A stretch of 64,000 nt of DNA from an uncultured cyanobacterium (lineage in GTDB: Bacteria > Cyanobacteriota > Cyanobacteriia > PCC-9006 > JAAUQQ01), in contig OY970368.1 of NCBI GenBank assembly GCA_963718615.1, forward strand, positions 4,992,001-5,056,000, given 5' to 3'. Made by a program: the position numbers and the translations under genes. A model generated the notes under the pieces. That model made no database searches and was not told the DNA's origin. It was given only the letters and a program-made list of their open reading frames with translations. How positions within the stretch are numbered: the first letter of the stretch is position 1; the number at the start of each line of letters is the position of its first letter. Shown piece by piece: positions 30,914-54,739 of this stretch.

Positions 30914-31000
30914 GTCTAACGGTTGCGGTCAGCGGTTGCCGATACTTTTGCATCCTACCCAAGCAGCTTTGGTCAATCCGCTGCACCGCAATTGTTATAC
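30914..31000 (-). other. integron attC site (locus A, proximal)
   Basis: On minus strand: R'' GTATAAC, left arm TTGCGGTgCAGCGGaTTG pairing with CAACCGCTGACCGCAA, R' GTTAGAC; 87 bp, 24 bp after the stop of the 552-aa gene. Confidence 0.88.
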
Positions 31001-31024
31001 AGCGTATCTATTTGGTTCGTTATG

Positions 31025-32683
31025 CTACCTTTTTCTTTTAGATTGTTGAAAGAGTAAGCCAACTGGGGATGCTTTCATCGTTTTTGCCTCTTTTTGAATC
31101 TCCTGAAACTTATTAGGTAATTCCTTCAATTTAGGTACATCAAGCAATTGATCAGCAGCAAATGCTAATAGACCAAAGGTTGGTGCACCGCTAAGAGCCG
31201 CTGCAACCTCAATAGTTCCAATTGCAATCCAACTTCCCACATCAACACCCGCAAACTTCCAAGTTTTATTACGAAGCTTTGTCATATTTTGCTGGTGTTG
31301 CTCAAAAGCACCACGAATGTTATCAACCACCTGATCAGTAGTCTGAAAGAAATTGGTTGGCTCAGATGCTGCAATATCAGATACTCCTCTGCCCAAAATT
31401 TCTCGGAGTTCTTCAGTAGCACCCTGTTGTCTCATTTCAACTAAAGCTTCTGGTGGGATATTGCCAAGCCATTGCATCTCACCTCTAGCAGCAGACTGAA
31501 GCCCTCGCACAACGTGTAGAGGAGTTAAGTCAGTGTTTGATACACGATCTGCATCGTATTCAAGTTTCCAATTAAGATATCTCCAAGATGTTTCAGCATC
31601 TATGAGTGGGGTTCCCCTAAGTTCTAGGCTCCGCCTCAATAAATCGTTGGCTTGCGACATTCGACCAATGAAATTTGGAAGAATAATATCACCCGCACGT
31701 TGTGGATTAAAGACTCTACCTTCTCCTCGCATATACTCGCGAATTTGTTCATCTAGAGTTTGTGTAGCTTCGGTATCAAAAAGAAGAAGATCAGGATTGG
31801 CAAGTGCAGCAACAAGATCACTAGGTTGCTCAAACTGTTTTGCATAATCTTGTAGCTCGTCAATTGACTCAAAGTTTCTTCCAAACATTGTAGAAACGTG
31901 CTTCAAACAATCACCCTCTGCCATAGAGTGAATAAACTCTGAATAACCTTCCTCTAAATCAAGCTTGTCAGGAACGATCGCAATGATTGGTGTATCAACT
32001 TCTGCAAGTGCTAAAGAGCGGTAACGTAATATTTGTAAACCAAACCGAAGCACTTCATATACTAATCTTTTAGGTTCCCAGTGAGGTACTAACCGTGATA
32101 TTCGCAGTAGAGGATCAGGAAGAATAATTGTATCAACATATAGACCGCAGCTAGAGGCAATGCTATGCCCTCCAGCAGGAAAGAGGGAGCCTCCATAAAC
32201 TGCTTTAATTCTATTTTGATCCTCGCTATGAATCCAAGCAGGATCTGCTATGTTTTTCCAAAACTCCTGAATTTGTTCAAGAAACTCAGGGAGATGTTGA
32301 GCAGCTTCCTGTACCTGATTAGCATCTTGTATATAGGCTCCAGCAATTTGATGAGGTTCAGCATTACGCTCTTGCATAACCTGAAATAGATCACCAAATT
32401 GGTGATCTATTGCTCTGAAAAAGGCTTCTTGTACTTGTTGTGGCGAAATAGCCTCTTTCCACTCTTCCCGATCTTGAAAGTGAGCCATCATAAGAGCCAT
32501 AGACCGCACTGTCCCATCTACAGTATCCGGATCTACTAGCCCATCTGGTGCAAGGCGTACCCTTTCTAAACTTTCCAAAACATCATCGGCAAGGTGTTCT
32601 GCAAGATGAATTTTGCCTACCTGAGCCTTCTCTCGAAGAATCATAATTCGCCGATGAAGCTCTTCTCTGTCAGTATCAGACAT
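31025..32683 (-). CDS. hypothetical cassette protein, 552 aa, candidate defence effector
   Basis: AT-richer than flanks, no exact HIP1 site noticed, bounded by GTTATAC (32837) and attC; hydrophobic pair near the C-terminus. Confidence 0.8.
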   Translation of the reverse strand: MSDTDREELHRRIMILREKAQVGKIHLAEHLADDVLESLERVRLAPDGLVDPDTVDGTVRSMALMMAHFQDREEWKEAISPQQVQEAFFRAIDHQFGDLFQVMQERNAEPHQIAGAYIQDANQVQEAAQHLPEFLEQIQEFWKNIADPAWIHSEDQNRIKAVYGGSLFPAGGHSIASSCGLYVDTIILPDPLLRISRLVPHWEPKRLVYEVLRFGLQILRYRSLALAEVDTPIIAIVPDKLDLEEGYSEFIHSMAEGDCLKHVSTMFGRNFESIDELQDYAKQFEQPSDLVAALANPDLLLFDTEATQTLDEQIREYMRGEGRVFNPQRAGDIILPNFIGRMSQANDLLRRSLELRGTPLIDAETSWRYLNWKLEYDADRVSNTDLTPLHVVRGLQSAARGEMQWLGNIPPEALVEMRQQGATEELREILGRGVSDIAASEPTNFFQTTDQVVDNIRGAFEQHQQNMTKLRNKTWKFAGVDVGSWIAIGTIEVAAALSGAPTFGLLAFAADQLLDVPKLKELPNKFQEIQKEAKTMKASPVGLLFQQSKRKR

Positions 32684-32830
32684 AGTTGAGGGTACCCCTA
32701 ACTCTACATATAGTCAATTCTAATCAATTCACTTGTGATTTGACCTAAATGTAGCGGGACTTCGTTGAAGCCTGAACATTATGCCCTAGCAGGAAATCTT
32801 CACAGGCTGTCTTCAGCAGAGAACGAAGCT

Positions 32831-32870
32831 GTATAACAATCTGATTAGACTGAATGACCTCCACCTAATC
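32831..32870 (-). other. attI-like recombination site (locus A)
   Basis: Minus strand GATTAGGTGGAGGTCATTCAGTCTAATCAGATTG|TTATAC; GTTATAC is the exact complement of the next attC's R''; 29/40 identical to 52918-52957. Confidence 0.7.
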
Positions 32871-32891
32871 CCCAGACTACAGGGTCTTATA

Positions 32892-34721
32892 CCCGGATTT
32901 CTCACCAGGGCGGATAGAGAGTATCAGGCTTGCCCGAAATGAGATGAGCAGTCTGTTGACTCGAGCAATAGAGGATGCCTGAGGCATCTTTCAGGCTGTC
33001 TATGCTGTAAAGGTAGTCATTGTGCTCTAGATATGGGGCTTCAGGCAGATTTTGAGCAGGTCAAAGCAAGGGTGTGTAATCTCACCCTTGGAGAGTCGTT
33101 GAATTAAAGTCGGAGCGAAAGGCTAGAGTTCTACTCATCGGTCTATCCTGGCCTAGGGAGTCGTCTGCGCAACTGTTGTGCTGCCGCTTCAAAGAGGGTT
33201 TGTATGGGCGAAGCGAAAGTGAATGCGACGAGAATGCGCCTGACAGAGATGCGAACCTGTGCGCCAAGCTTGAGCAGCTTGCGTCGAATGGTGCCCAGAG
33301 TCGCATCAGCGAGTTCAGTTTTGGCGAGTGCCTTGAGGCGCAGGGCCTGCATCAAGACATAGGCGAAGGATGAAAACCAGAGTCTGAGCTGATTGCTTTC
33401 AAAGTCATGGGTGGAGGTGCGGTCGCTGAAGAGGTCAAGCTGATGCTCCTTGATGCGATTTTCCATCTCTCCTCGCGGACAGTAATAATCGCGGTGAAGG
33501 TGAGCGGGATGGGCCTGCTGTGCTGTCAAAGAGGTGACAACGAAATGGCGACGTGGGCCATTGCCATCGTAGGTGAGCTTGCAAATGACGCGACGCTCAC
33601 AGCTCCAGGATTTAAGCGTGGCATAGCTCAAGGACTGATGCCAAACCTGGGGCGGAACCAAGCGGTTGAGTTCAGCCTCTAGTTCACTTGCACTCTGCTC
33701 TAACAGAGGTTCTAAGGTGGCAGCAACCGTTTGGCGCTGGGCCTCATAAACGGCTTTGGCTCGCTGTTCTAACCCCCAAGTCAATTGGCGCAAGCGCTCA
33801 TTGCTGCTGTGGGCAAAAACAAAGTCCACCTGGGCTTCACCTTCACACCACAGCATGATGTCATCTCGGCTGTAAGCACTATCGCCGCGCACCAGAATCT
33901 TCACCTTCGGCCAATGACCTCGAATCTGAGCCACGATGCGTTGGAGTTCTTCTAACGCTCCCGCTGCGGGGTCCACATTGGCCGGTCGCAGTTTTGCACT
34001 CAACAAATGGCGACCACTGAAGATGAGCAACGGGGTGTAGCAGTCATGGCGGTAATACCCATTGAACGCTGAACCTTCCTGGGTGCCATGGGTGGGGTCA
34101 TCGGTGACATCCATGTCCAGGATGATTTGTTTCGGTTCACCTTCGAGTTGTTCGATGAATAGCTCCACCAAGAGCGCCTCGATGGCAGCCGGGTCCAGGC
34201 TCAGTTTCACGTAGCGCGAATCTGACAAGTCGCGGGGGACATGCATCGCTTGCTCCAATCGGTTGAGGGTGCTCTTGCCCGCTAACGGTGCACAGCGCGG
34301 ATGCTGGCTTTCTAACTGACCCAGAACTACCCCAAATAATCGCTCATGCCGAAGGTCGTCATGGTCATTCACGTCCTCGTAGCCTTGCACCAATCCATAA
34401 AGCCGTTGCCCGAGCAGCGTTTTCAATTCATGTTGCACCCGGCTGCCATCGCGGTGATCCGTAAAGCACTCGGACAGCCGCTCACTGATTCGATATAGCT
34501 GGTCGATTTCTCGAATTAGCAGCAGCCCTCCATCACTGCTGAGCTCACCACCGCTAAAGTTCGCTACTATCTTGCGTTGATTCAGGCGTCCAAACTCGTA
34601 GCTTGGCAAGTTACACTCTGTTTGGGTCGGGGCCATCTTTGCAAACCGCTGAATGTCTTGTGGTTATTACATTCTCGCTGGTTGGTGACCCCGATCCCTC
34701 GGCACTGGTGAGATATCCGGG
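32892..34721 (-). mobile_element. IS1380-family insertion sequence, 1830 bp
   Basis: Terminal IRs CCCGGATTTCTCACCAG / CCCGGATATCTCACCAG (16/17), 5-bp target duplication TTATA. Confidence 0.93.
33143..34636 (-). CDS. IS1380 DDE transposase
   Basis: FSGGELSSDGGLLL, GYEDVNDHDDLR, LDMDVTDDPTHG, VRGDSAY, RGEMENRIKE. Confidence 0.95.
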   Translation of the reverse strand: MAPTQTECNLPSYEFGRLNQRKIVANFSGGELSSDGGLLLIREIDQLYRISERLSECFTDHRDGSRVQHELKTLLGQRLYGLVQGYEDVNDHDDLRHERLFGVVLGQLESQHPRCAPLAGKSTLNRLEQAMHVPRDLSDSRYVKLSLDPAAIEALLVELFIEQLEGEPKQIILDMDVTDDPTHGTQEGSAFNGYYRHDCYTPLLIFSGRHLLSAKLRPANVDPAAGALEELQRIVAQIRGHWPKVKILVRGDSAYSRDDIMLWCEGEAQVDFVFAHSSNERLRQLTWGLEQRAKAVYEAQRQTVAATLEPLLEQSASELEAELNRLVPPQVWHQSLSYATLKSWSCERRVICKLTYDGNGPRRHFVVTSLTAQQAHPAHLHRDYYCPRGEMENRIKEHQLDLFSDRTSTHDFESNQLRLWFSSFAYVLMQALRLKALAKTELADATLGTIRRKLLKLGAQVRISVRRILVAFTFASPIQTLFEAAAQQLRRRLPRPG

Positions 34722-35190
34722 TTATACAGAGCTGCTTCAGTCTATTCCCCAAATTAGGAATATTAGACCGAACCAGAGTCGGTATAATCCCCAAAAACGA
34801 ACAATTAGGCGGAATGTCATTCCGCCTAATCCCGGATTTAGCGTCTTAGCCCGAATCTCATTCCTCATAATATCCACAATCCCCCGGATAAGACGATCAC
34901 CAGGCTTTTCCTGTCAAAAATCTTTGCATAGCATTTCGCCTAATCCCCCAAATCCCGCCTTAGACCGAAGCACCGAACATCCGCCCCCTTCAACAACACC
35001 TCCAGTTCAACCATGAAACCGACCAATTAGAGGCATGCAGTTCGGGGTCTGGGCGTTTGGCAAAGAAACAATCAGAGAACCGAAGCAGCCTGATTGCCCT
35101 GGTACCCAGCAGCAGCGATCGCAACCTTCCCACCTTCCCTGGGAAAACTAGAATCATCCGCTCAGGCTCATCCCGGTACCTGCTAGTCCC

Positions 35191-36372
35191 ATGCCTACCG
35201 CCGCATCTGCTCTCAAAAAAGGAATTCGTGCCATCCAAGCCGGTCGCTACACCGACGCGATCGCCCTCCTCCAATCCTGGTGCGACCAAGCCGGTCCCGA
35301 GGCCGAAGCCTATCCCGAAGCGGTGAAAGTCCTCGTGCGGGCCTATCGGGAAGCCGAACGCTGGGAAGATGCGATCGCCCTCTGCGAAGACCTAGCCGAA
35401 CACAGCGACCCCGCCCTCAAACATTGGGCTTGGCAAATGCTGCCAGTCCTGAGCAAAGCGCAGCCCGTCGATGGTCCCACCACGGAATTTGTCACCCTAC
35501 CCCACGCAGAAGCCGACCACACCGCCTTACAGATCGCCAAAAAATCAGTTCCCCTCGGAGATACCGCCGAACAACGTCAACTGCTCGCCGGGGCCAGGGA
35601 AGCCCTGGAAGCGCAACGCTATGGCACAGCCGTAGAACAGTTTGAAGCCTATCTGCGCCAAAAAAAGCAATTCGACCCGGCCAAGGCCCAAACCCACATT
35701 GCCCTAGCCCGCGCCTATCAAGGCAATCAACAGCGCCAGGAAGCCATTAACCTCTGCCAGCATTTGCTCAAAATTGGCGATCAGGGCACCAAACGCTGGG
35801 CACACCAATTTCTAGAAGCCATCAAACGCTATCCCAAAGCCCGCGATCCCTTGGCAGAACAACGCCAAGCCCGCAAACCCCCCACCCATTTGCAGTGGGA
35901 CATTTCGGAATCGGCCTTGGTGATTGCGATCCATACTTCGGTTTATGCCGGATTAGTCCTCTCTCCCCTGGTACCGGGAACCTTGTGGCGCGATTTGGGC
36001 TTAGCGCTGATTCAAGCAGGCACGATTACGCCGGAGTTGATCTTGCCCTTGGCGATCGCCCTGCTCCCCCTCAGCTTTCCCGCCGCATTACTCTACAGCT
36101 CCAAGGAACAAGCGATTCGGGGCCATGCTCGGGAAGTGGTGAACTATTGGATTACCTTGTTTGCGATCGCCCTCGCCGTCAGTCTCCTCGGCCCCTTGTG
36201 GACCATGCTGATGGAATGGGTTGCCAAGCTACCGCTGTTGTTTAATCTCACCAAACTTGTCCTTTCTCTGGCCGGATTCGGCTATGGTGCCGCTCCGCTC
36301 TTGGCGATTTTATGGCACTTTAAGAAACCCGAGCGCCGCTTCCGCTATCCTTTTATCCTACGCTTCATTTAA
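35191..36372 (+). CDS. TPR-repeat membrane protein with C-terminal DUF4870-like segment
   Basis: Two TPR-like modules (EAINLCQHL...WA), TM helices, HAREVVNYWIT and FRYPFILRFI terminus. Confidence 0.7.
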   Translation: MPTAASALKKGIRAIQAGRYTDAIALLQSWCDQAGPEAEAYPEAVKVLVRAYREAERWEDAIALCEDLAEHSDPALKHWAWQMLPVLSKAQPVDGPTTEFVTLPHAEADHTALQIAKKSVPLGDTAEQRQLLAGAREALEAQRYGTAVEQFEAYLRQKKQFDPAKAQTHIALARAYQGNQQRQEAINLCQHLLKIGDQGTKRWAHQFLEAIKRYPKARDPLAEQRQARKPPTHLQWDISESALVIAIHTSVYAGLVLSPLVPGTLWRDLGLALIQAGTITPELILPLAIALLPLSFPAALLYSSKEQAIRGHAREVVNYWITLFAIALAVSLLGPLWTMLMEWVAKLPLLFNLTKLVLSLAGFGYGAAPLLAILWHFKKPERRFRYPFILRFI

Positions 36373-37610: not shown

Positions 37611-40600
37611 CTAGGGATCACCCTGGAGGGGAAGCCGGGGACAATCGGCAGCGCTGAGCTGGAGATAATCCAGACATTCCTGCGGGGTGAGCTGACGGAA
37701 GCTGCGATCGCGCGCCAGTTTGCGCAAACTCTTGGCCGTCGCGGCCCAAAAGGCAACGGTGCCCTCGGTATTCACCGCTGCGATAAATTGCCCATCGGGG
37801 CTATAGGTCACCTGGACAATGCCTTCCGTTACGTCCTGGGGGGTCTCTAGCGGGGTCTCTAGCAAGGTAATCTGACCCGTTTTGATCGACCAAAGGCGCA
37901 CAGTGCCATCGCGGTGGCCCGTGGCAAGCTGCTGCCCCTCGGGGGAAAATGCCAGGTCGCGGATGGGGCTCATTTTTGCTCCCGGTTCTGGCCCCTGCCC
38001 CAGGGATTGGGTTTGGCCCGTTTTCAGGTCGATCAGGGTGAGCGCACCGTCGGAGAACGTGGCTGCCAGGGTTTTGCCACTGGGATCGAGATGGGCGATC
38101 GCGATCCCCGGTAATTCAAACCGATGCAATTGTTTGCCGGTTTTGACGGCCCAGAGAGTGACAGTACCCGTCGGACTCACGGTTAAGAGGCGTCTGCCAT
38201 CGTGGCTAAACTGGGCGCTGGCGATCGCCCCCAAGGCTTGGGGCCAGAGGGCCTGTTGCCCACTATCTGTATCCCAAAGATGCAGCTGCTGGTGACGATC
38301 GATGGCCAAAAGGCTGCGACCTTCAGGGCTGAGCTCAAGGGTTTGCAGCGCCGGGGAGGACGGCGCGGAGTCGGTAGTCCCTTGGGATTCCAGATCCGGG
38401 TCTAGATTCGGGTTCACAGTGGCGTCTAGCGGATCCAGATCCGTCACTAAAATCTCGGCCCGGCGCAGATCCCAAACCTGAATATCCCCATTGGCATGGG
38501 CCGTGGCAACGGTCTGAAAATCGCCAGTCCAGTCGGCTAACTGAATCGGGGAGTGGGGCTCAATGTCGAGGACAGCGGTTTCCTGCTGAAAGCCTTGGGG
38601 AATGTTCCAGCGGTTGAGCTGACCGGCTGAGTCCAAGAGCAAAAACTCCAGGCCCGTGGGTCGGGTCGATCGCACCTGGAAGGGTTGGCGCGGTTGCAGT
38701 CCTAGCCAGCGCAGCGGGGCCAGGAGGCGATCGGGCACGGGCGCAGGTTGAGCCTCGGATTGAGAACTGGCAGCAGCCATCGGCTCCAGGATCGGCTCTA
38801 CCGATGCCCTAGGGAAGACTTGCGCAAAGCCCTGACGAATTCCCTCGGTGTGCAGGGGCGGCAGCTCATACCCTGGCTGGGCATCCCAAAATTGCAGATG
38901 GCGCGCATTGACGGTCACAAGGGTGTTGCCATCGGGGCTAAAGCGAGCATCCAGCAGGTCGGAAGCCTCGTCGGCCTCGCGCAGCACCGCCTGTCTGTGG
39001 CCCGTTTTGAGGTCCCAAAGCTGGGCAGCGTGGGGCTGAATTGCCAGGAGTTGGGTGCGATCGCCCTTCAACCGCACCAGGGGCACATCCGCGCCCTCGG
39101 TCAATTGCAACAGATTTTGTAGTTCTCCCGTTGCGGCATCCCACAACCAGGCCCGATTGCCCTGCACCGAGATCACTTGCGATCCGTCCGTCGAAAAGTC
39201 AAGCTGCTGGGGCTGCCCGGTTTGGATTTGCAACGACGCGGTGACCCGCAGTTGGTGACGCAATTCACCAGTGGCACGATCCCAGAGGTAGAGCGTACCG
39301 TTATGGCCGACAGCGGCGATCGCCCCCGTCTGCGGACCCAATTTTGGACTCAGACGAATCTGGGTAATGGGCGTGGAGGCACTCAGTTCTAGCTCCTGAA
39401 TGCCGGTTTCCAGATCCCAGAGACGCAAACGGCGATCGCCCCCGCTGGTCAAGAGATAGCGACCATCCTCACTAAACTGCATCTGTTCCACTGGGGTGTC
39501 ATGGTCGAGGGTTCCGAGGAATCGCGGCTTGGTGCCTTCGGTATCCCACAGGTAAACCAAACGACCGGCGATCGCCGCCAACCGGGGCTGGGTCGGACTA
39601 TATAAAATCTGCTCCGGCGGTATCGGCAAGTCTGTGAGCACCTGCTTCACCTGGCCCGAAGGCAAGGACCAAATGGCAATTTCTGGGCGATCGGGGGTCA
39701 TGGCCGCCAGTTGATCGCCCGTGGGACTGAGACTCAGCCCCGTAATCCGCACCTCAGCCACCGGACGGGAAGAGGTATCCACAAACGCGAAGCGCTGGAG
39801 GTCAGGCCCAACTCCGACATTGCGGGTGGTCTGGAGCGAACCAGCGCTCGCCATCGCCGGTTGAGCCAACAACGACTGCATCAGCCGAGAGGCGCGAGTG
39901 GCAGCGGGTTCCTGGGGCCAGACTAATTTTTGCTGAATGCGGGCGGATTGTTGCTGATCTAAGATAGGACCCACTTTCCAAAAATAGGCTTGTCCCATAG
40001 GGTCAATTCCGGCAATCAGAGGCTGTTGGCTAGACCACTGGAGCGATCGCGGTGCCGTCCGGGTTTTGTACTCTGCCCGCAGCTGCATACTGCGCAGCGC
40101 CTCTCGCAGAAGCTGATCCGAAGCGGGATCAAGGACTTGTTCCGGCGACGGAGGCATGGTCCAGCGGCTGAGCAGCAGCGCTGGGGTCGGGTCGGCCTCG
40201 TCATTGGCCAAAATCTTTTGGGCCGCTTGGCGACTGGGCAAGGTTTGAGCAGCGGGGGGATGAGACCCGGACCAATATTGATGCACCACGGCAAAGAGCG
40301 TTGCCGTCAGTGCCGAGGGCAGTCCGACCTGCAACAATCGTGAACTGTGTCGCAGCTTCTGGTTTTCCTTTTGACTCAAGTGGATGTAGTGCTGCGCAAT
40401 CGACGACAAATCCTCAGGATGATTGCGCAAATAGGCTTCTGCTGCCCGGAGCTTGGTTCCCTGGAGCCAGCCTTCACCACTGAACAACTCGTTGCGATCG
40501 CACCATTCCTTTGCCGCTGCTTCAATCCAGCGCTGTTGGGTGAGGCGATCGCGATCGGTTTTAAGCCACTGTCGCAGATCGGGCCAGTCCCGGATCAGGG

Positions 40601-42635
40601 CTTCGTGGGAGGCTTGGACCCAGTCCTTTTGCGATCGCGTCGCCAGAAATGTCACCTCGGGCTCCAAATCCGGGGGCAGCGGCATAACGACCCCCCCACT
40701 GGCCACCAACCGAGATTCGATCAAGGTTTCGAGCATTGCCGCCAGTTCTTCTCCCCGTGGCGTTGGACCAATGCCCAGGTCCAACTTCGAGACCATGCGT
40801 AGGGAATCCGGTGCCCCATCACCGAGCTGCGTCAGTGCCAGAAAAATCCGCTGGACAAGGCTTTGCTCGGAAGGGGAAAGATCGCTCAGAAGCTGAGTTG
40901 CCTGGTGAACTAACAGCCCTCGAATACCGCCCAGCTCCGCATAGGTCTTCAGGCGAAAAATGCGATCGGGCGTCGAGCCCGCTTGGGCCTCCCAGATGGA
41001 GTGCAGGACCAACTGCACCAAGGCCATCCGCGCTGGCGAAGTGGCGATATCGGCGAGGACCACCGCTGGTAATAGTGCTTCACACTGCCATCCCACCCGT
41101 TGGAGGGGTTTGACAATGGCAGCCTCTAGGGCGGGGCCACTGAGGGGATCGACGGTAATCAGTTGGGAGGGACCTTGGTGGAGCAGTTCGGTGATGGGAT
41201 AACAGGCCTCCCAATAATCGGACCGCACGGCGATCGCCACCCGCACCCAGTCCGACTCCTCCTGTAACAGCGTCACCAAATTTGCCACCACATGTTGACG
41301 GATCATCTCCATATCCCGATCCGTGGAAGGCTGGAGCAGCGCTTCAAAGGGATCGAGAACCAGCAATAGCTTTACCCGACTAGCCATCCAACCGCTGGGC
41401 CGTAGCGTCCGCACCAGTTGCAACAGCCCCCGCGTATCCGAGGCCAGCAACAAACTATTGCGACGCATTTGTTCGCCCCGCTCCCACTCAGTGGTCTGGG
41501 CATCGACGAAGGCCGCAGCCAGATCGAGCAGGGGTTGATTGTGTTGACCCAGATGCACGGACTTGAGTAACCAAGGGGTCTGGGTTTGTCGCTGGAGTGC
41601 AGGTAGTAGACCCGCTTGAATCAGCGACGTTTTGCCGCTACTGGCTCCCCCCACAATGGAGACCAAACTGTGATTAAACAAGGCTTCCAGCAGCGTTTGC
41701 ACCAGCTCATCCCGCCCCGTAAAGGCATAGGCTTGTTCTAGGCTAAAGGCATGCAGCCCAGGAAACGGACAAGGGGGAAAAGCCGGTGACGGAGGCGGAG
41801 CGGATGGCGGAACTGATTGGGACGCGGCTGGGGACACGGCTGGGGACGCGGCTTGCGCTGAGTCCGGAAAAGCCGAGTCAGGAATCGTTTTCGCACCGGA
41901 TGGAGCAGCCAAAACCCGAGCACGGGTCAAAACGATTTCGCCGCCTGAATTTTCAAAGAGCGGCTGCTGCAACTCGCCCTTCAGTTGTGTGCTAACCCAG
42001 TCTGTCAAGGCATAATTGGTAACACAACCCGCCATCAGTCGCTGGGGCACAAGACCTTCCAACAGGGCTTCCGTCAGCACACTATACTCACTTTGCAAAG
42101 ACTCATAGGCCGCTTCATACTCCCGCGAAGCCGCCATCAAAAAGCGCGAAGTGCCGGGTTGAGCCCCCGGATCCACCTCGGAAAAATTCAGCAATGCCCC
42201 ACTGTGACAACAATCCAGCCAAATCACCCGCTGCCGCACCGGGCTCTCCTGCAACAGTCGCCGCAGCCAAAACAGCGACAGACCATAGAGGCTCTGCTCG
42301 GGATTGACATCGCTCGTGGCCAGATAGCCCTCATGGATGCCCTGTTCCTTCTGCAACCCATGACCCGAAAAATAGAACAACGCCGTGTCCGGGACCGTCG
42401 GCCCCTTGGGCTTAAACAGTTTGACCAGCGCGGTTTCCAATTGCTGGACGGTGAGCGGGGTTCGTTGGCCGATTTTGGGCTGGCCCGCTTGAATGATTTC
42501 CGGCAGCCGTTGCACCCGAAAATCGCCGTCTTGACTCAGTCGTTGGGCGATCGCCTCTGCATCCCGAGCCGGTGCGCCCAAGCTGGGCAAGACCTGATAG
42601 TGGTTCAAACCGACCACCAGGGCATCTCTTGACAT
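37611..42635 (-). CDS. caspase-like peptidase C14 + STAND-like NTPase + WD40 repeat protein
   Basis: RDALVVG, YFSGHG, LDCCHSG; CPFPGLHAF, GGASSGKTS, HEALIRDWPDLRQWL; many WD repeats; ATG at 42635. Confidence 0.88.
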   Translation of the reverse strand: MSRDALVVGLNHYQVLPSLGAPARDAEAIAQRLSQDGDFRVQRLPEIIQAGQPKIGQRTPLTVQQLETALVKLFKPKGPTVPDTALFYFSGHGLQKEQGIHEGYLATSDVNPEQSLYGLSLFWLRRLLQESPVRQRVIWLDCCHSGALLNFSEVDPGAQPGTSRFLMAASREYEAAYESLQSEYSVLTEALLEGLVPQRLMAGCVTNYALTDWVSTQLKGELQQPLFENSGGEIVLTRARVLAAPSGAKTIPDSAFPDSAQAASPAVSPAASQSVPPSAPPPSPAFPPCPFPGLHAFSLEQAYAFTGRDELVQTLLEALFNHSLVSIVGGASSGKTSLIQAGLLPALQRQTQTPWLLKSVHLGQHNQPLLDLAAAFVDAQTTEWERGEQMRRNSLLLASDTRGLLQLVRTLRPSGWMASRVKLLLVLDPFEALLQPSTDRDMEMIRQHVVANLVTLLQEESDWVRVAIAVRSDYWEACYPITELLHQGPSQLITVDPLSGPALEAAIVKPLQRVGWQCEALLPAVVLADIATSPARMALVQLVLHSIWEAQAGSTPDRIFRLKTYAELGGIRGLLVHQATQLLSDLSPSEQSLVQRIFLALTQLGDGAPDSLRMVSKLDLGIGPTPRGEELAAMLETLIESRLVASGGVVMPLPPDLEPEVTFLATRSQKDWVQASHEALIRDWPDLRQWLKTDRDRLTQQRWIEAAAKEWCDRNELFSGEGWLQGTKLRAAEAYLRNHPEDLSSIAQHYIHLSQKENQKLRHSSRLLQVGLPSALTATLFAVVHQYWSGSHPPAAQTLPSRQAAQKILANDEADPTPALLLSRWTMPPSPEQVLDPASDQLLREALRSMQLRAEYKTRTAPRSLQWSSQQPLIAGIDPMGQAYFWKVGPILDQQQSARIQQKLVWPQEPAATRASRLMQSLLAQPAMASAGSLQTTRNVGVGPDLQRFAFVDTSSRPVAEVRITGLSLSPTGDQLAAMTPDRPEIAIWSLPSGQVKQVLTDLPIPPEQILYSPTQPRLAAIAGRLVYLWDTEGTKPRFLGTLDHDTPVEQMQFSEDGRYLLTSGGDRRLRLWDLETGIQELELSASTPITQIRLSPKLGPQTGAIAAVGHNGTLYLWDRATGELRHQLRVTASLQIQTGQPQQLDFSTDGSQVISVQGNRAWLWDAATGELQNLLQLTEGADVPLVRLKGDRTQLLAIQPHAAQLWDLKTGHRQAVLREADEASDLLDARFSPDGNTLVTVNARHLQFWDAQPGYELPPLHTEGIRQGFAQVFPRASVEPILEPMAAASSQSEAQPAPVPDRLLAPLRWLGLQPRQPFQVRSTRPTGLEFLLLDSAGQLNRWNIPQGFQQETAVLDIEPHSPIQLADWTGDFQTVATAHANGDIQVWDLRRAEILVTDLDPLDATVNPNLDPDLESQGTTDSAPSSPALQTLELSPEGRSLLAIDRHQQLHLWDTDSGQQALWPQALGAIASAQFSHDGRRLLTVSPTGTVTLWAVKTGKQLHRFELPGIAIAHLDPSGKTLAATFSDGALTLIDLKTGQTQSLGQGPEPGAKMSPIRDLAFSPEGQQLATGHRDGTVRLWSIKTGQITLLETPLETPQDVTEGIVQVTYSPDGQFIAAVNTEGTVAFWAATAKSLRKLARDRSFRQLTPQECLDYLQLSAADCPRLPLQGDP

Positions 42636-43027
42636 AGCACAATGCTTGAATGAATTGGACTGAATCCGGTCGCCTGGGGTATTGGGACAAAAGGGGATGG
42701 ACAAGTTGCCCATCCCACTTGATCAACACCTCGACGATGCACCCTAAGCTGGCCCCAAAACTGGAGCCTGCACCCTGAATTGGCGATGCAACCTTGGACG
42801 AAGAAAGCTGGCTAGGAATTATGCATCGCCGGAATCGCCCTCTAGAGACGCTTCTCTTGCTTTCTTCGCTGGCCGCAGATGCGTTTTCTTGCAGCCTTGT
42901 GGTTGTTAAAGTAACCAAGGAAAGGGGGAGTGTAAAAAGGGTGTCGCTCCTCGCGTAAGGCCACGGAAGCCCCATCCTCTCTTGCTTTTCAGCCCTCAAA
43001 ACTTCCGTGGATTCACCCTCGTCGACG

Positions 43028-50225: not shown

Positions 50226-52157
50226 CTATACAGTCGCCGCCTCGCGTTTTTTTGCAGACTGTACTTCGAGATAAATCAACAGGGCATTCACATCCGCCGG
50301 ATTAACCCCCCCAATGCGCGAGGCTTGGCCAATGGTTAGCGGACGGACTTGGGTGAGCTTTTCGCGAGCTTCCATGGAGAGGGTTTCGATCGCCATATAG
50401 TCCAAATTATCGGCTAACTTACGGTGTTCTTGACGGGCGATCGCATCAATTTGCTTCTGTTGCCGCTGCAAATACCCTGAATATTTAATCTCAATCTCCG
50501 CTCCTTCCTTTTCTTCCCGAGCCAGCGACGCCGTACCGAGGCCATAATGGTCCAAATCGCCATAGTGAAATCCAGGCCGACGCAGCAGATCTGCCAAGGT
50601 AATGGCATCTTTAATTTTTTGCTCGGTGTCTGCCATGATCTGCTGACCAACGGCTTCGTGGGCTTTGATGCGGGTGCTGTGGAGGCGTGCTTTTTCGGCG
50701 GTGATCTGGGCTTGCTTTTGCTGGAACAACTGCCAACGGCGATCGTCAATCAGGCCAATTTCTCGACCCACAGGCGTCAAGCGCTGATCGGCATTATCCG
50801 ATCGCAACAGCAACCGATATTCCGACCGACTGGTCAGCATCCGATAGGGCTCACGCAACTCTTTCGTACACAAATCATCTAGTAGCGTTCCCAAATAGCT
50901 CTGTTCCCGAGGGAAGATTACCGGGTCTTGGCCGCGCACCAACCGCACGGCATTAATCCCGGCCACGATGCCCTGGGCAGCGGCTTCTTCATAACCCGTG
51001 GTGCCATTGATTTGCCCTGCACAAAATAGCCCTTCGACGCGTTTGGTCATCATCGAGGGAAAGCATTGGGTCGCAGGCAAATAGTCATATTCGACGGCGT
51101 AGGCCGGTCGCAGCATGGTACAGTTTTCGAGGCCCGGTAGCGTACGCAACAGTACCAGTTGCAAATTCTCAGGCAGTCCAGTAGAAAATCCTTGAATATA
51201 CAACTCCGGGATGTCGCGCCCCTCCGGTTCAATAAAAATTTGGTGCGAGTCCTTATCGGCAAACCGCACGATCTTATCTTCGATGCTGGGGCAATAGCGC
51301 GGGCCTTTGGCATCGACGTAGCCGCCATAAATCGGCGTTAAGTGCAGGTTCTCCCGAATCATTTGGTGGGTGGCGGCGGTGGTGCGGGTGAGGTAGCAGG
51401 GCATTTGCTCTCGCTCCACCCAGGCGTCCGGGTCAAAGCTAAACCAACGCACATCTTCGTCGCCCGGTTGGGGTTCGAGAACACTGTAATTGACTGAGCG
51501 TTTATCAACGCGGGCGGGGGTGCCGGTTTTGAGGCGATCGGTTTCAAATCCCAAGCGGTTCAGGGTTTCCGTTAGCCCAACCGCCGCAAATTCCCCGGCC
51601 CGACCCGCTGGCATGGATTTGTTGCCCACCCAAATCTTGCCCCCCAGGAACGTACCGGTTGTTAAAACAACTGCTTTTGCCTTAAATGCTGCACCAAAGT
51701 AGGTCTCAACGCCCTGGACTTCTTCGTTTGGCCCCAGGATCAGATCGGTGACCATGCCCTCGCGCACCAGCAAATTTTCCTGGTTATCGACGATCTGTTT
51801 CATGATCGCGGCATATTCCCGCTTATCGGTTTGCGCTCGTAGCGCCCAGACGGCGGGGCCTCGGGAGGCGTTGAGAATGCGTTTTTGCAAGTAGGTGCGA
51901 TCGGCCAGTTTGCCAATTTCACCGCCCAGGGCATCGACTTCGTGGGTGAGCTGGGATTTGGCAGGGCCACCGACGGCGGGGTTGCAGGGTTGCCAGGCGA
52001 TGCGATCGAGATTCAGCGTTAGCAGCATGGTTTTGCAGCCCAACCGTGCCGCCGCCAGGGCTGCTTCACACCCGGCATGACCGGCCCCGACGACGATGAC
52101 GTCGAATTCGTCTTGGAAGTCGCGTGGGAAATTATGGGTAGCGATCGCAGTGGGCAT
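50226..52157 (-). CDS. mnmG: tRNA U34 carboxymethylaminomethyl modification enzyme MnmG/GidA
   Basis: [46 protein letters not shown]; ATG at 52157 preferred. Confidence 0.98.
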
Positions 52158-52356
52158 GAGAACAGGTATGGCTCTGTCAGGGACTAGAGCCTTTATTTTA
52201 TCGGATTCTACGAATTCCCTGTTAGCTGGCTCCGTATACAGATCTTGCACTTATCCTTTGCGGCAATCGATCATTCTGAATTCCTCAGCAAAGATCGTCT
52301 GTGGCCAGGGTTGATAGATAATTGATTGGCAGGAATCAAATGCTCCACAGTCAATT

Positions 52357-52473
52357 ATGAAGTTGCTGACTCGCGACGCTACTGACTATATCAATGACCA
52401 TCTAGACCAGGGGTTGAGTTTAGACAAATTAGCGACGATCGCCCACCTCAGCCCTTATCACTATGCATATTAG
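52357..52473 (+). pseudogene. AraC-family HTH fragment
   Basis: MKLLTRDATDYINDHLDQGLSLDKLATIAHLSPYHYAY* is the first AraC HTH, truncated. Confidence 0.7.
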
Positions 52474-52661
52474 GGTTTCTAGGGATTTCGATTGCAAGCC
52501 ATATCCCGAAAGGGCTTCGGGAAATTTTAGTGCTTAATATCGCAAGTTTTGTCCTGTACAGAGCGAAATAGTAGGTCCTCTGGGCCATCTCATCAACAGA
52601 TACTTACCCTTTTCCACAGGGTAGAAATCGATAAAATCGTTGCTGATACAGAGTTTCAGCT

Positions 52662-52684
52662 ATCCTTACCTTTAGAGTACTACC
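52662..52684. mobile_element. possible IS1-family terminal repeat remnant
   Basis: TCCTTACCTTTAGAGTACTACC (GGTAGT... on the minus strand) abuts the point where the intI-like frame stops; recognised from memory of IS1 ends. Confidence 0.3.
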
Positions 52685-52718
52685 CCTGGTCAAGCAATTT
52701 TTTGGGTCTGGGTTCCAT
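52680..52718 (-). pseudogene. 5' stub of an integron integrase-like gene
   Basis: MEPRPKKLLDQG* matches the typical IntI N-terminus (..PKKLLDQVR..); divergent from the attI-like site as in canonical integrons. Confidence 0.65.
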
Positions 52719-52797
52719 GGCGGTTTCATAGAGAAAAGTTACGAAACCCTAACTTGCATAATATTTTATAAAGGACGCCGTGCTATCTGGCAGGGTA

Positions 52798-52944
52798 GCT
52801 ATACTGAAATGAGTCCACCTAATCTACTAATGAAGGTGTTATGCAGACATATGGCTACCTAATCTCCTTTAGGGAATTGTTAGATGGACAGATTTCCATC
52901 TAACGCGTCCAAAGCGTGACTAGATGGACTAGATTCAGTCCAAT
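52798..52944. repeat. phased array of four 26-bp imperfect palindromes (40-41 bp period)
   Basis: Units start at 52798, 52838, 52879 (perfect GTTAGATGGA-N6-TCCATCTAAC) and 52919. Confidence 0.8.
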
Positions 52945-52957
52945 AATATTGTTAAAT
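52918..52957 (+). other. attI-like recombination site (locus B)
   Basis: GACTAGATGGACTAGATTCAGTCCAATAATATTG|TTAAAT; 29/40 identical to the locus A site; lies between the intI stub and the first attC. Confidence 0.7.
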
Positions 52958-53041
52958 CGCAGCGGCAATATGAATCACTGAGGAGGCTTGCCTATAGATT
53001 TAATGTTAGCGCTTGGGAACACTACAAACAACTCCGCTACG

Positions 53042-53157
53042 AATTAACATATCGCTGCAACCGACGCAACAAAAAAAGGATTGATGAGCCAGCCGCGCTA
53101 TCAACATGCGTTGATAATAGCTAGATTTCTTGGCGTGGCTGAGCTAAATCGTTAGAC
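53042..53157 (+). other. integron attC site (locus B, proximal)
   Basis: AATTAAC-ATATCGCTGCAACCGACGC ... GCGTGGCTGAGCTAAATC-GTTAGAC; 116 bp. Confidence 0.75.
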
Positions 53158-53199
53158 AGAAAACCTATAATTTATAAATATGATTCATAGACTAACTTT

Positions 53200-54621
53200 A
53201 TGGAATGTAAAGCGAAGAAGTATTTCTCAGTTGAAGTTGACTTTGAGCTAGACTTTTGCACGCATGAAGCGAAAATTTACACAACAGACAGGTTTTATGA
53301 GCTGAAGACAGTATCTGGTGAGTTAGGCGCAGAATCTAGTTCTGATAAAAAAGCCTTTTTAGTGATAGAGGTATGGACTCAATTGAATGACACTGAGTCT
53401 TCCATAAATGTTCTTTTAAATACTCGGACTCCTATTCTAATTCTTCTTAGTATAATTAGCTATCTCTTAGATTATCCATTGACTATTTATGAAGCAGCAT
53501 CAGGCGAAACTGGGATTGCCTCAGATGAAAAACCTAATAAAATCAAAGTTTCAAAGTTTGTTCACAGTAAGATTGACAAATCAGATGACCTCCTCAAAAT
53601 TTTAGAAGCTATTTATGAGAGTGGAGAAAGCGTCAATGAATTTTTGGTTTCTGTCTTAAGTCGTTGGCATAAAGCTCGTTATTTAGAAGAACAAGATGAT
53701 GCTAGCTTATATTACGAGGAGAGCTTTCTGGTTTATTTCCATGTTATAGAATTATGCTCTAATCATTACAGCAACCAACAAAGCAAGGAAGCGCAAGACC
53801 AAATAGAAAGATTTACAAGAGAACTTCTTTCAAATACGTTAAAACTGCGGGACAATCAATTAGAACAAGCTAGTCAAGAGAAATACAAGGCAGTTCGCTC
53901 GATTTTGCTGGCTGATGGGCAAATATCAATAACATCAAAAACATGTTATTTTCTAGATCGAGTAAAGTTATTAGACCTCAAAACACAGTATTTTGTAGAG
54001 CAACTGGTTAAAATACGTAATACGATTGCACATGGTCGTCCTGTAAATCACAAAACACTAAGCTGGCCTCTGCCACCATTTTTCTCGATCAATGGTGATG
54101 TAGGAAATTTTATCTTTGAAATCAGGGCATTTACAGGTCGAGTTATTGGCGCGTATCTATCAATTGAAGCTTGGATGGATAAGTGGTCGGATGTCCATGA
54201 TTGTTTACATGTGCCGCCAGAATATATCAAAAAATTCATAAATGAGAACTCCTTTAAATCTATTTCACCAACTGATTTCCTAAAAGGTACGATAGAGGGC
54301 GTAAGACCAAGCTCTTTGGTGAAGCAATTTTTATTAAATAGGATGAAATTTCATGAGCTTGAAATAGGATTGAAGTCATTTTTGCTTGATGTAAAAGTTG
54401 ATGAAGATAGCGCTTTTGAAATTTTTGAGGCATCAATAGTGTTGGCAGACTCATCAGACAAGCAATTATCTGATAGATGCAGAAATATAGTATTTGATAT
54501 ACATAAAAACGAATTAGCGTGGTATTCAAATATAAAAGATGTTCTTAGAGAAATAGAGCAGCAAGGAGTTAAGTTGGTCTGGTTTCGTGAATGGATCGAA
54601 ACTGGTGGTCATAGGAGCTAA
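53200..54621 (+). CDS. HEPN-motif (ApeA-like) cassette protein, candidate antiphage RNase
   Basis: AT-rich; SFLVYFHVIEL followed by RNTIAH (RxxxxH); flanked by GTTAGAC and attC. Confidence 0.7.
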   Translation: MECKAKKYFSVEVDFELDFCTHEAKIYTTDRFYELKTVSGELGAESSSDKKAFLVIEVWTQLNDTESSINVLLNTRTPILILLSIISYLLDYPLTIYEAASGETGIASDEKPNKIKVSKFVHSKIDKSDDLLKILEAIYESGESVNEFLVSVLSRWHKARYLEEQDDASLYYEESFLVYFHVIELCSNHYSNQQSKEAQDQIERFTRELLSNTLKLRDNQLEQASQEKYKAVRSILLADGQISITSKTCYFLDRVKLLDLKTQYFVEQLVKIRNTIAHGRPVNHKTLSWPLPPFFSINGDVGNFIFEIRAFTGRVIGAYLSIEAWMDKWSDVHDCLHVPPEYIKKFINENSFKSISPTDFLKGTIEGVRPSSLVKQFLLNRMKFHELEIGLKSFLLDVKVDEDSAFEIFEASIVLADSSDKQLSDRCRNIVFDIHKNELAWYSNIKDVLREIEQQGVKLVWFREWIETGGHRS

Positions 54622-54651
54622 GCTGTGAACCAATTGCTATGAAAGAAATCT

Positions 54652-54739
54652 GTCTAACAATCCCGTTGCACACCGACCGTATAAAGTTGGTTGGTCAAGC
54701 CCAAGAGGTAATGGCGGCAGGTGAACGGGGTCGTTAGAT
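54652..54739 (+). other. integron attC site (locus B, distal)
   Basis: GTCTAAC-AATCCCGTTgCACaCCGaCCG ... CGGCAGGTGAACGGGGTC-GTTAGAT; TCTGTCTAAC is the exact complement of the cassette start GTTAGACAGA. Confidence 0.88.

Follow-up and report, generated by a model that had tools for sequence, protein, structure and literature searches.

The window analysed here is a 64,000-nt stretch of contig OY970368.1 from an uncultured cyanobacterium (assembly GCA_963718615.1, positions 4,992,001–5,056,000, forward strand). It contains two arrays of short imperfect palindromes, termed locus A and locus B; each array ends at a GTT where gene cassettes with attC sites begin, and locus A is interrupted by an insertion sequence (IS). 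We consider it probable that both arrays are orphan attI regions of integrons, with evenly spaced half-sites of alternating orientation that we predict to be accessory binding sites of the integron integrase. At the sequence level, the putative attI identity of both arrays has two supports: homologous arrays occupy the space from intI to the first cassette at other loci and in other genomes, and the cassettes start at the terminal GTT.

Layout of the two arrays and their cassettes

Without the IS, locus A forms a 300-nt run of six 26–27-nt units and a lone box with a period of ~41–42 nt. The five unit starts that had been proposed for the IS-free run in an earlier, sequence-only reading of the window were re-located at the same coordinates (Table 1), and the run stops, as stated there, 6 nt before the GTT of the first cassette. 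That reading had the array ending with unit 5, whereas a split sixth unit and the lone box follow it. The same architecture was confirmed at 52798–52957 (locus B), with four units at the periods given earlier. The junction-proximal unit of locus A is conserved in eight of the nine homologous A-type arrays that cover it (alignment A2). With the G of GTT as the common anchor, the sequences around the two crossover points share 24/40 positions, where the earlier description had 29 of 40.

At both loci the last arm, the 6-nt spacer and the GTT box make up an inverted pair, that is, a simple site with an L and an R box. The other arms repeat the L-box class, roughly TTCYGYMTAAY when read towards the outer end, and their orientation alternates approximately every 20.5 nt; in relatives, the palindrome centres are often 20–21 nt apart. 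The boxes stand back-to-back at 12–13 nt within a unit and face each other across gaps of 13–16 nt in the window. The facing-box gap is about one helical turn longer than that of the simple site, and the crossover spacing is found only at the terminal pair.

Visual inspection identified the attC sites by their RYYYAAC ... GTTRRRY ends and the inverted repeats inside them. In both arrays the cassettes begin exactly at the terminal GTT, and the first cassette of each locus is closed by an attC. The GTTRRRY core at the cassette boundary is exact in locus B (GTTAAAT), and the junction of locus A (GTTATAC) departs from it at the second R. The first box of the locus A attC, GTATAAC (31000–30994), is the exact complement of this junction.

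The first cassette of locus B, termed X, has two further copies in the genome, one at 948 kb beside an intact intI (L001:8286-8485, minus strand) and one at 4.666 Mb (L003:15794-15990). The three copies are 93–97% identical, and in the window, at 948 kb and at 4.666 Mb X is the first cassette after non-homologous arrays of the B, C and A type, respectively. They align from GTTAAAT onward and diverge again past their last G; since the alignment is limited to this interval, they represent three separate insertions at the terminal junctions of three attI types. The presence of X at three array types suggests that an integrase acting in trans recently inserted it at orphan sites.

Table 1. Coordinates of the array, cassette and IS features of the window
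Feature	Position	Strand	Remarks
Locus A junction (R box) GTTATAC	32831–32837	−	predicted crossover between G (32837) and TT (32836); first cassette extends leftward
Locus A spacer, 6 nt	32838–32843	−	
Locus A unit 1 (junction-proximal)	32844–32869	−	arm beside spacer is the L box of the simple site
Locus A unit 2	32886–32891 joined to 34727–34746	−	split by the IS; homologous to unit e of other A-type arrays
Locus A unit 3	34762–34788	−	
Locus A unit 4	34804–34830	−	perfect 13+13 palindrome
Locus A unit 5	34845–34871	−	
Locus A unit 6	34886–34946	−	arms separated by a conserved ~38-nt insert
Locus A lone terminal box	34959–34965	−	side facing intI in homologous arrays; intI gone here
First cassette, locus A	30914–32836	−	552-aa ORF 32683–31025 plus attC
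attC of first cassette, locus A, 87 nt	31000–30914	−	GTATAAC ... GTTAGAC
IS element, 1830 nt	32892–34721	−	splits unit 2 of locus A; imperfect terminal inverted repeats
TTATA duplication flanking the IS	32887–32891 and 34722–34726		
IS transposase ORF	33143–34636	−	Pfam DDE_Tnp_1_4, 6.9e-138
Locus B array, four units	52798–52824, 52838–52864, 52879–52904, 52919–52944	+	periods 40, 41, 40
Locus B spacer, 6 nt	52945–52950	+	
Locus B junction (R box) GTTAAAT	52951–52957	+	
First cassette X, locus B, 200 nt	52952–53151	+	no ORF
Second cassette, locus B	53152–54739	+	473-aa ORF 53200–54621 plus attC
attC of second cassette, locus B, 88 nt	54652–54739	+	GTCTAAC ... GTTAGAT

The palindromy of the units is uneven. 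With a chance level of about 3 self-complementary positions of 13, units 1, 3, 4 and 5 of locus A have 7, 10, 13 and 7, and units 1 and 2 of locus B have 7 and 11; in units registered by hand to 26 nt, the values are 6/12 for unit 2 of locus A, and 9/13 and 4/13 for units 3 and 4 of locus B. Locus A differs strongly from chance in its phasing: autocorrelation over 150 nt peaks at a lag of 42, where identity is 48% and shuffled sequences give 37±1% (0/200 shuffles match), and the box-geometry score is 35/45 against 23.2±1.7 (0/100 shuffles match). Tandem Repeats Finder made no report at either array, and Rfam had no matches in 30000–56000. A CRISPR array was rejected, as the units are 62–81% alike and separated by 13–16 nt, in contrast to the near-identical 28–37-nt repeats and unique spacers of similar length in CRISPR. 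An identity of the units as attC sites was also rejected: they are 26–27 nt long, have the GTT-like end outermost on both arms and lack covariation, whereas an attC is a single imperfect palindrome of ~55–140 nt that opens with RYYYAAC (5′), closes with GTTRRRY (3′) and is recognized as a folded strand. Short array motifs are not enriched genome-wide (e.g. CCTAATCC, 81 and 84 occurrences per strand vs. 93 expected); a reading of the units as dispersed short repeats was dismissed on these counts. Generic chains of at least three palindromes at 38–43-nt spacing are non-discriminating (26 in the genome vs. 7, 16 and 22 in three genomes simulated by a Markov-3 model). Automatic calling of units under stringent settings recovered arrays in no more than 17 of 108 regions, at times in the opposite phase, and served for display only.

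The open reading frames (ORFs) flanking the arrays encode HsdR, MnmG, a TPR protein and two proteins of 552 and 473 aa that belong to no family; the proteins adjoining locus A are unrelated to those adjoining locus B. The TPR gene starts at 35191, beyond the intI-side end of locus A. The 552-aa cassette protein (31025–32683, minus strand) has no Pfam family, and its N-terminus is weakly Avs1c-like (E 7e-7; 29 bits, below the cut-off of 70). The cassette may thus bring a defence gene with it. The assignment of the IS to IS1380 extends as far as the Pfam DDE_Tnp_1_4 match of its transposase. Eight full-length copies of this IS are present in the genome and identical over 1830 nt, so its insertion at locus A is recent, and the element is active now or was so very recently.

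The ~38-nt block within unit 6 of locus A (34897–34934) is conserved in eight of ten aligned A-type arrays and divergent in the window copy and in G004:C431. The window copy contains TTGACA read towards the cassettes, and the consensus promoter scan made no call there; the block could be a promoter or a site for a bending protein. Locus B is adjoined by a 282-nt insert (52471–52752) with 10-nt terminal inverted repeats, TTAGGGTTTC and GAAACCCTAA, which is single-copy in the genome by megablast. A short ORF near this insert (52096–52314) resembles by eye a fragment of an AraC-type helix-turn-helix and has no Pfam match. Between the two arrays, a 1700-aa protein (37611–42713, minus strand) combines an N-terminal caspase-like domain with C-terminal beta-propeller repeats.

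Integron integrases beside related arrays

The genome encodes an intact integron integrase at 948 kb, a 323-aa ORF that matches TIGR02249 with 444 bits (cut-off 265), and four similar units are located between its start codon and a GTTAAAT junction. Four intI remnants were identified by tblastn, each with an array between the start codon and the GTT junction. The array layout is therefore present at 5/5 intI or remnant loci of the genome. One of the array types beside intI and its remnants has four units, and the other has six 27-nt units whose starts are 38, 42, 40, 42 and 40 nt apart. Where such an integron is complete, its array extends to within about 10–90 nt of the intI start codon.

In total, blastn revealed 23 array loci in this genome, which fall into four sequence types (A, 7; B, 2; C, 3; D, 11). 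An intI gene or remnant stands beside five of the 23 loci and beside none of the A or B loci; types C and D have an integrase alongside, and their linked integrases are only 64% identical. Four arm-sequence types in one host, together with this divergence of the C- and D-linked integrases, fit recognition by a cognate integrase and not by a host protein. Arms within one array are too mixed for a clean comparison of arm sequences with integrase residues. In the window itself, no tyrosine recombinase was found by a search for PF00589 or by tblastn with the IntI of the genome (E≤10). Neither locus is a complete integron, as no integrase gene is adjacent, and both were classed as orphan attI sites because the window lacks such a gene.

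Both array types of the window are homologous to DNA between an intI start and a first cassette. An A-type array starts ~40 nt from an intI stub in G004:C83 (66% identity, residues 5–78), and in G245:C142 a four-unit B-type array takes up the interval from an intact intI (449 bits) to a GTT junction. The latter is one of three homologues of locus B, with 74% identity; the others are at G000 785261 (90%) and in G003 (G003:C252, 83%). The attI reading proposed earlier is supported by these neighbours of A- and B-type arrays, by the layout at the intI loci of this genome, and by attC-bounded cassettes at both junctions.

The generality of the period was assessed by autocorrelation of the regions upstream of intI, with lags of 25–60 allowed. 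In a survey of the class, TIGR02249 scored above its cut-off in 124 of 401 genomes; 30 loci were fetched, five had too short an upstream region, and 25 were usable. The best lag was 39–43 nt in 16 of the 25, and a lag of 40–42 had p≤0.01 in 11. A collection-wide set of 80 loci was obtained with an integrase alignment; the best lag fell in 39–43 in 12/12 usable cyanobacterial loci (nine at p≤0.01), in 13/62 loci from other phyla (five at p≤0.01), and in none of the eight usable gammaproteobacterial loci. A period of ~40–42 nt upstream of intI is general in Cyanobacteria. Outside this phylum, the same layout was recognized by eye in Chloroflexota (L072, L077, L078) and Acidobacteriota (L085) and not in L122; the integrases adjacent to the former four arrays are 56–64% identical to the query alignment A1.

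In a GTT-anchored test, the L box was required to recur in alternating orientation at the expected places, with a period range of 39–43 imposed. The test was significant (p≤0.01) in five of eight arrays of this genome, in 9/25 class-survey and 8/12 collection-wide cyanobacterial loci, and in 8/63 others. The modal period, within the imposed range, was 41 (22/60), and the modal spacer was 5 nt (16 of 30 significant arrays), which equals the box spacing in the attC sites of the window.

Several features of individual arrays were observed in the course of these comparisons. In several relatives (loci L043, L065, L031 and L061), the stretch from the intI start codon to the first unit holds a short palindrome with GTAC in it; this palindrome resembles cyanobacterial LexA boxes, which would fit SOS control of intI. 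At 4665480–4667343 of this genome (L003:15480-17343), two A-type arrays of the same orientation follow one another at a distance of ~1.3 kb. The second takes the place of an attC that would close a cassette; an attI array may have been captured or duplicated here within a cassette-like unit. Two further arrays, at 2.25 Mb and 4.667 Mb (2250671–2250804 and 4666909–4667042), have in common 134 nt of intI-side flank (95.5% identity) and carry different cassettes: a platform that already lacked its integrase was copied, and the copies gained cassettes independently.

Proposed mechanism and alternative explanations

We propose that several integrase monomers would be held in a row beside the crossover site by predicted binding to the arms. 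The array would act like the DR1 and DR2 repeats of class 1 attI, with nine boxes (locus B) or 14 (locus A) in place of four. As a 41-nt unit corresponds to approximately four helical turns, all boxes are expected on one face of the helix, and the bound row probably bends or wraps the DNA. In complete integrons, integrase on the array would at the same time occupy the intI promoter region and restrain its own synthesis. Both window loci would have lost their integrase genes, and locus A is further broken by the recent IS; judging from the cassette common to three array types, the sites may have been used in trans not long ago. Binding of the accessory arms by the integrase is the best explanation that we infer from the combined analyses.

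A number of observations weigh against this interpretation. Good palindromes are found in only four of the nine window units. Locus B taken alone is marginal (lag 40, p ~0.04; geometry 24/45, p 0.17), and we accept it as real because homologous copies exist; the array beside the intact intI also fails both statistics (p 0.6 and 0.08). Strict boxes are rare: locus A has no GTTRRRY or RYYYAAC, and locus B has two GTTRRRY, one of them the junction, and one RYYYAAC. The claim that the arms are GTTRRRY-like therefore stands for the looser pattern DTTAKRY / RYMTAAH, which fits them, and falls for the strict form, which matches few. In nine of the 25 class-survey loci the best lag is outside 39–43, and at least one locus, L034, has no clear array by eye. 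Four of the eight significant loci in the "other" set of the GTT-anchored test look like composition noise in the arm listing, a caveat that applies to the non-cyanobacterial hits. Promoter-like sites occur at chance (one vs. 0.6 expected, none vs. 0.7, and one vs. 0.3, the last outside the array), a result that neither supports nor tests promoters inside arrays and leaves the autoregulation step without direct support. The accessory boxes alternate, whereas the attI1 repeats are direct, and the analogy with DR1 and DR2 may not carry over. Finally, intI adjoins neither window array, and the present-day activity of both is therefore only putative.

The units could instead be operators of another DNA-binding protein, such as a host regulator or a nucleoid protein, with the integrase confined to the terminal simple site. 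Dimeric regulators typically bind imperfect palindromes of 26–27 nt, whole-turn phasing is typical of cooperative repressor arrays, and the arrays reach the region of the intI start codon. A host regulator is nevertheless unlikely, since four arm types coexist in one cell and one host factor would not match all four; no gene other than intI and cassettes is conserved alongside the arrays, and the last arm is also the L box to which the integrase has to bind, a box repeated by the other arms. Similarly, the phasing might reflect a run of alternative crossover sites, each facing box pair between units being a usable simple site, an idea also raised in the sequence-only reading. All inter-unit gaps are indeed flanked by boxes oriented like L and R, and some arrays of the genome are shorter or truncated. 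Against this, the facing boxes in the window are 13–16 nt apart and not 5–6 nt. Each of the three arrays with X has it at the terminal junction, and in six partial loci inspected by eye, not systematically, the truncated arrays do not end at an internal GTT with a recognizable cassette. These data disfavour alternative crossovers and make them very unlikely.

Folding of the units was considered as well, either as hairpins or cruciforms of single-stranded DNA comparable to attC partners, or as stem-loops of a leader RNA acting as attenuators. Unit 4 of locus A and unit 2 of locus B are stable as single strands (−12.1 kcal/mol, z −6.3, and −8.2 kcal/mol, z −4.9), integrases of this family recognize folded attC DNA (PMC8946536), and one unit followed by a T-run scores as terminator-like, a count of one against 0.5 expected. 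Most units are poor palindromes, Rfam gave no match, and the GTT is at the outer end of each arm, opposite to a folded attC. Compensatory changes are also missing from ten homologous A-type arrays: doubly changed pairs number 6 against 4.8±1.4 in shuffles (reached by 156 of 500), paired cells make up 78.9% against 77.9%, and seven pairs are mismatched in nine or ten of the ten arrays, i.e. mismatches are fixed in place. The lack of arm-to-arm covariation favours separate protein half-sites over hairpins, and we regard folded units as highly improbable. Least probable of all, and close to dismissible, are transposon ends: loci A and B face each other over 20 kb, both from a conserved terminal sequence, and could be the ends of a Tn7- or Mu-like element with several transposase sites, for which paired inverted ends, a target duplication and a cognate transposase would be expected. 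However, the outer flank of B is a 200-nt cassette also found beside an integron integrase, most arrays of the genome are solitary and homologous ones adjoin intI, and the 20 kb hold mnmG and other ordinary genes, with the IS transposase the only one among 12 ORFs in and around this interval scanned against Pfam. The 20-kb transposon was dropped when blastn of both arrays against the genome placed the B-flank sequence at 948 kb, abutting the integron integrase.

Comparison with known attachment sites

In the lambda attP arm sites and in the Tn4430 TnpI resolution site, which consists of a core and DR1/DR2, extra recombinase sites beside the core shape a higher-order complex and so give the reaction its direction or topology. 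In lambda, the arms are bound through a domain of their own, and the bending proteins come from the host. Unlike those of lambda attP and TnpI, the extra sites of the arrays resemble the core box itself and are far more numerous.

The attI site is recognized as double-stranded sequence by its cognate integrase (PMC8946536, PMC3146285). In attI1, four integrase sites lie within 65 bp, and DR1 and DR2 are extra integrase-binding sites that favour attI × attC recombination (PMC8946536, PMC3146285). The arrays resemble attI1 in having a terminal simple site of L and R boxes around G|TT and extra boxes on the intI side, which are thought to hold integrase nearby (PMC8946536, PMC3146285). In contrast to attI1, they have nine (B, over 160 nt) or 14 (A, over 300 nt) boxes, all of them predicted sites, and these boxes alternate as 26–27-nt quasi-palindromes with a strict ~41-nt period that reach the intI start codon, instead of forming direct repeats; an assignment to the DR1/DR2 organisation of attI1 was not adopted.

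The attIA site of the chromosomal integron of Vibrio cholerae is reported to have no accessory repeats (PMC8946536), and the same is reported for most of 30 environmental attI families (PMC3146285). As attI sites of sedentary chromosomal integrons with a GTT crossover and a simple site, the arrays are similar to attIA and differ from it in being dominated by repeats. Clusters of attC cassettes without a nearby integrase gene are described as CALIN, SALIN or "pseudo-integrons" (PMC4889954). Both window loci fit this description, and they differ in that the attI is recognizable and countable, with 23 in one genome. According to the standard detection program, the attI site is unknown for most integrons and hence cannot be searched for (PMC4889954). 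Full-text literature searches, with subscription journals outside their coverage, turned up neither phased arrays of palindromes at attI nor any account of attI sites from Cyanobacteria, in agreement with the earlier statement that the architecture is undescribed. The variant that we regard as new is an attI site whose accessory array is phased and greatly expanded, so that its size is several times that of the textbook site. Here it is represented by two relics that lack an integrase, and an IS has broken one of the two.

We tentatively put forward a wider proposal, which as a whole is possible and rather doubtful. The integrons of Cyanobacteria and related Chloroflexota would have a distinct class of attI, in which up to 14 core-type boxes form a phased row and the integrase builds a wrapped, lambda-like higher-order complex on it without an arm-binding domain or a host factor. 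With a loading platform of its own, such a site would work without a neighbouring integrase gene, one integrase could service two dozen docking sites dispersed along a chromosome, and X would be a footprint of this activity in trans.

The attI site is the least understood part of the integron and has been characterized for a handful of classes. A recognizable attI layout in a large clade makes orphan docking sites findable and countable, as in the present genome, where only five of 23 sites have a trace of an integrase gene. It also provides a natural series of three to seven units for probing the role of accessory integrase sites. Because the cassettes at array sites include defence-type genes, these sites are landmarks for cyanobacterial defence islands. 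If one integrase does serve many dispersed sites in trans, this would change the reading of cassette clusters that lack an integrase.

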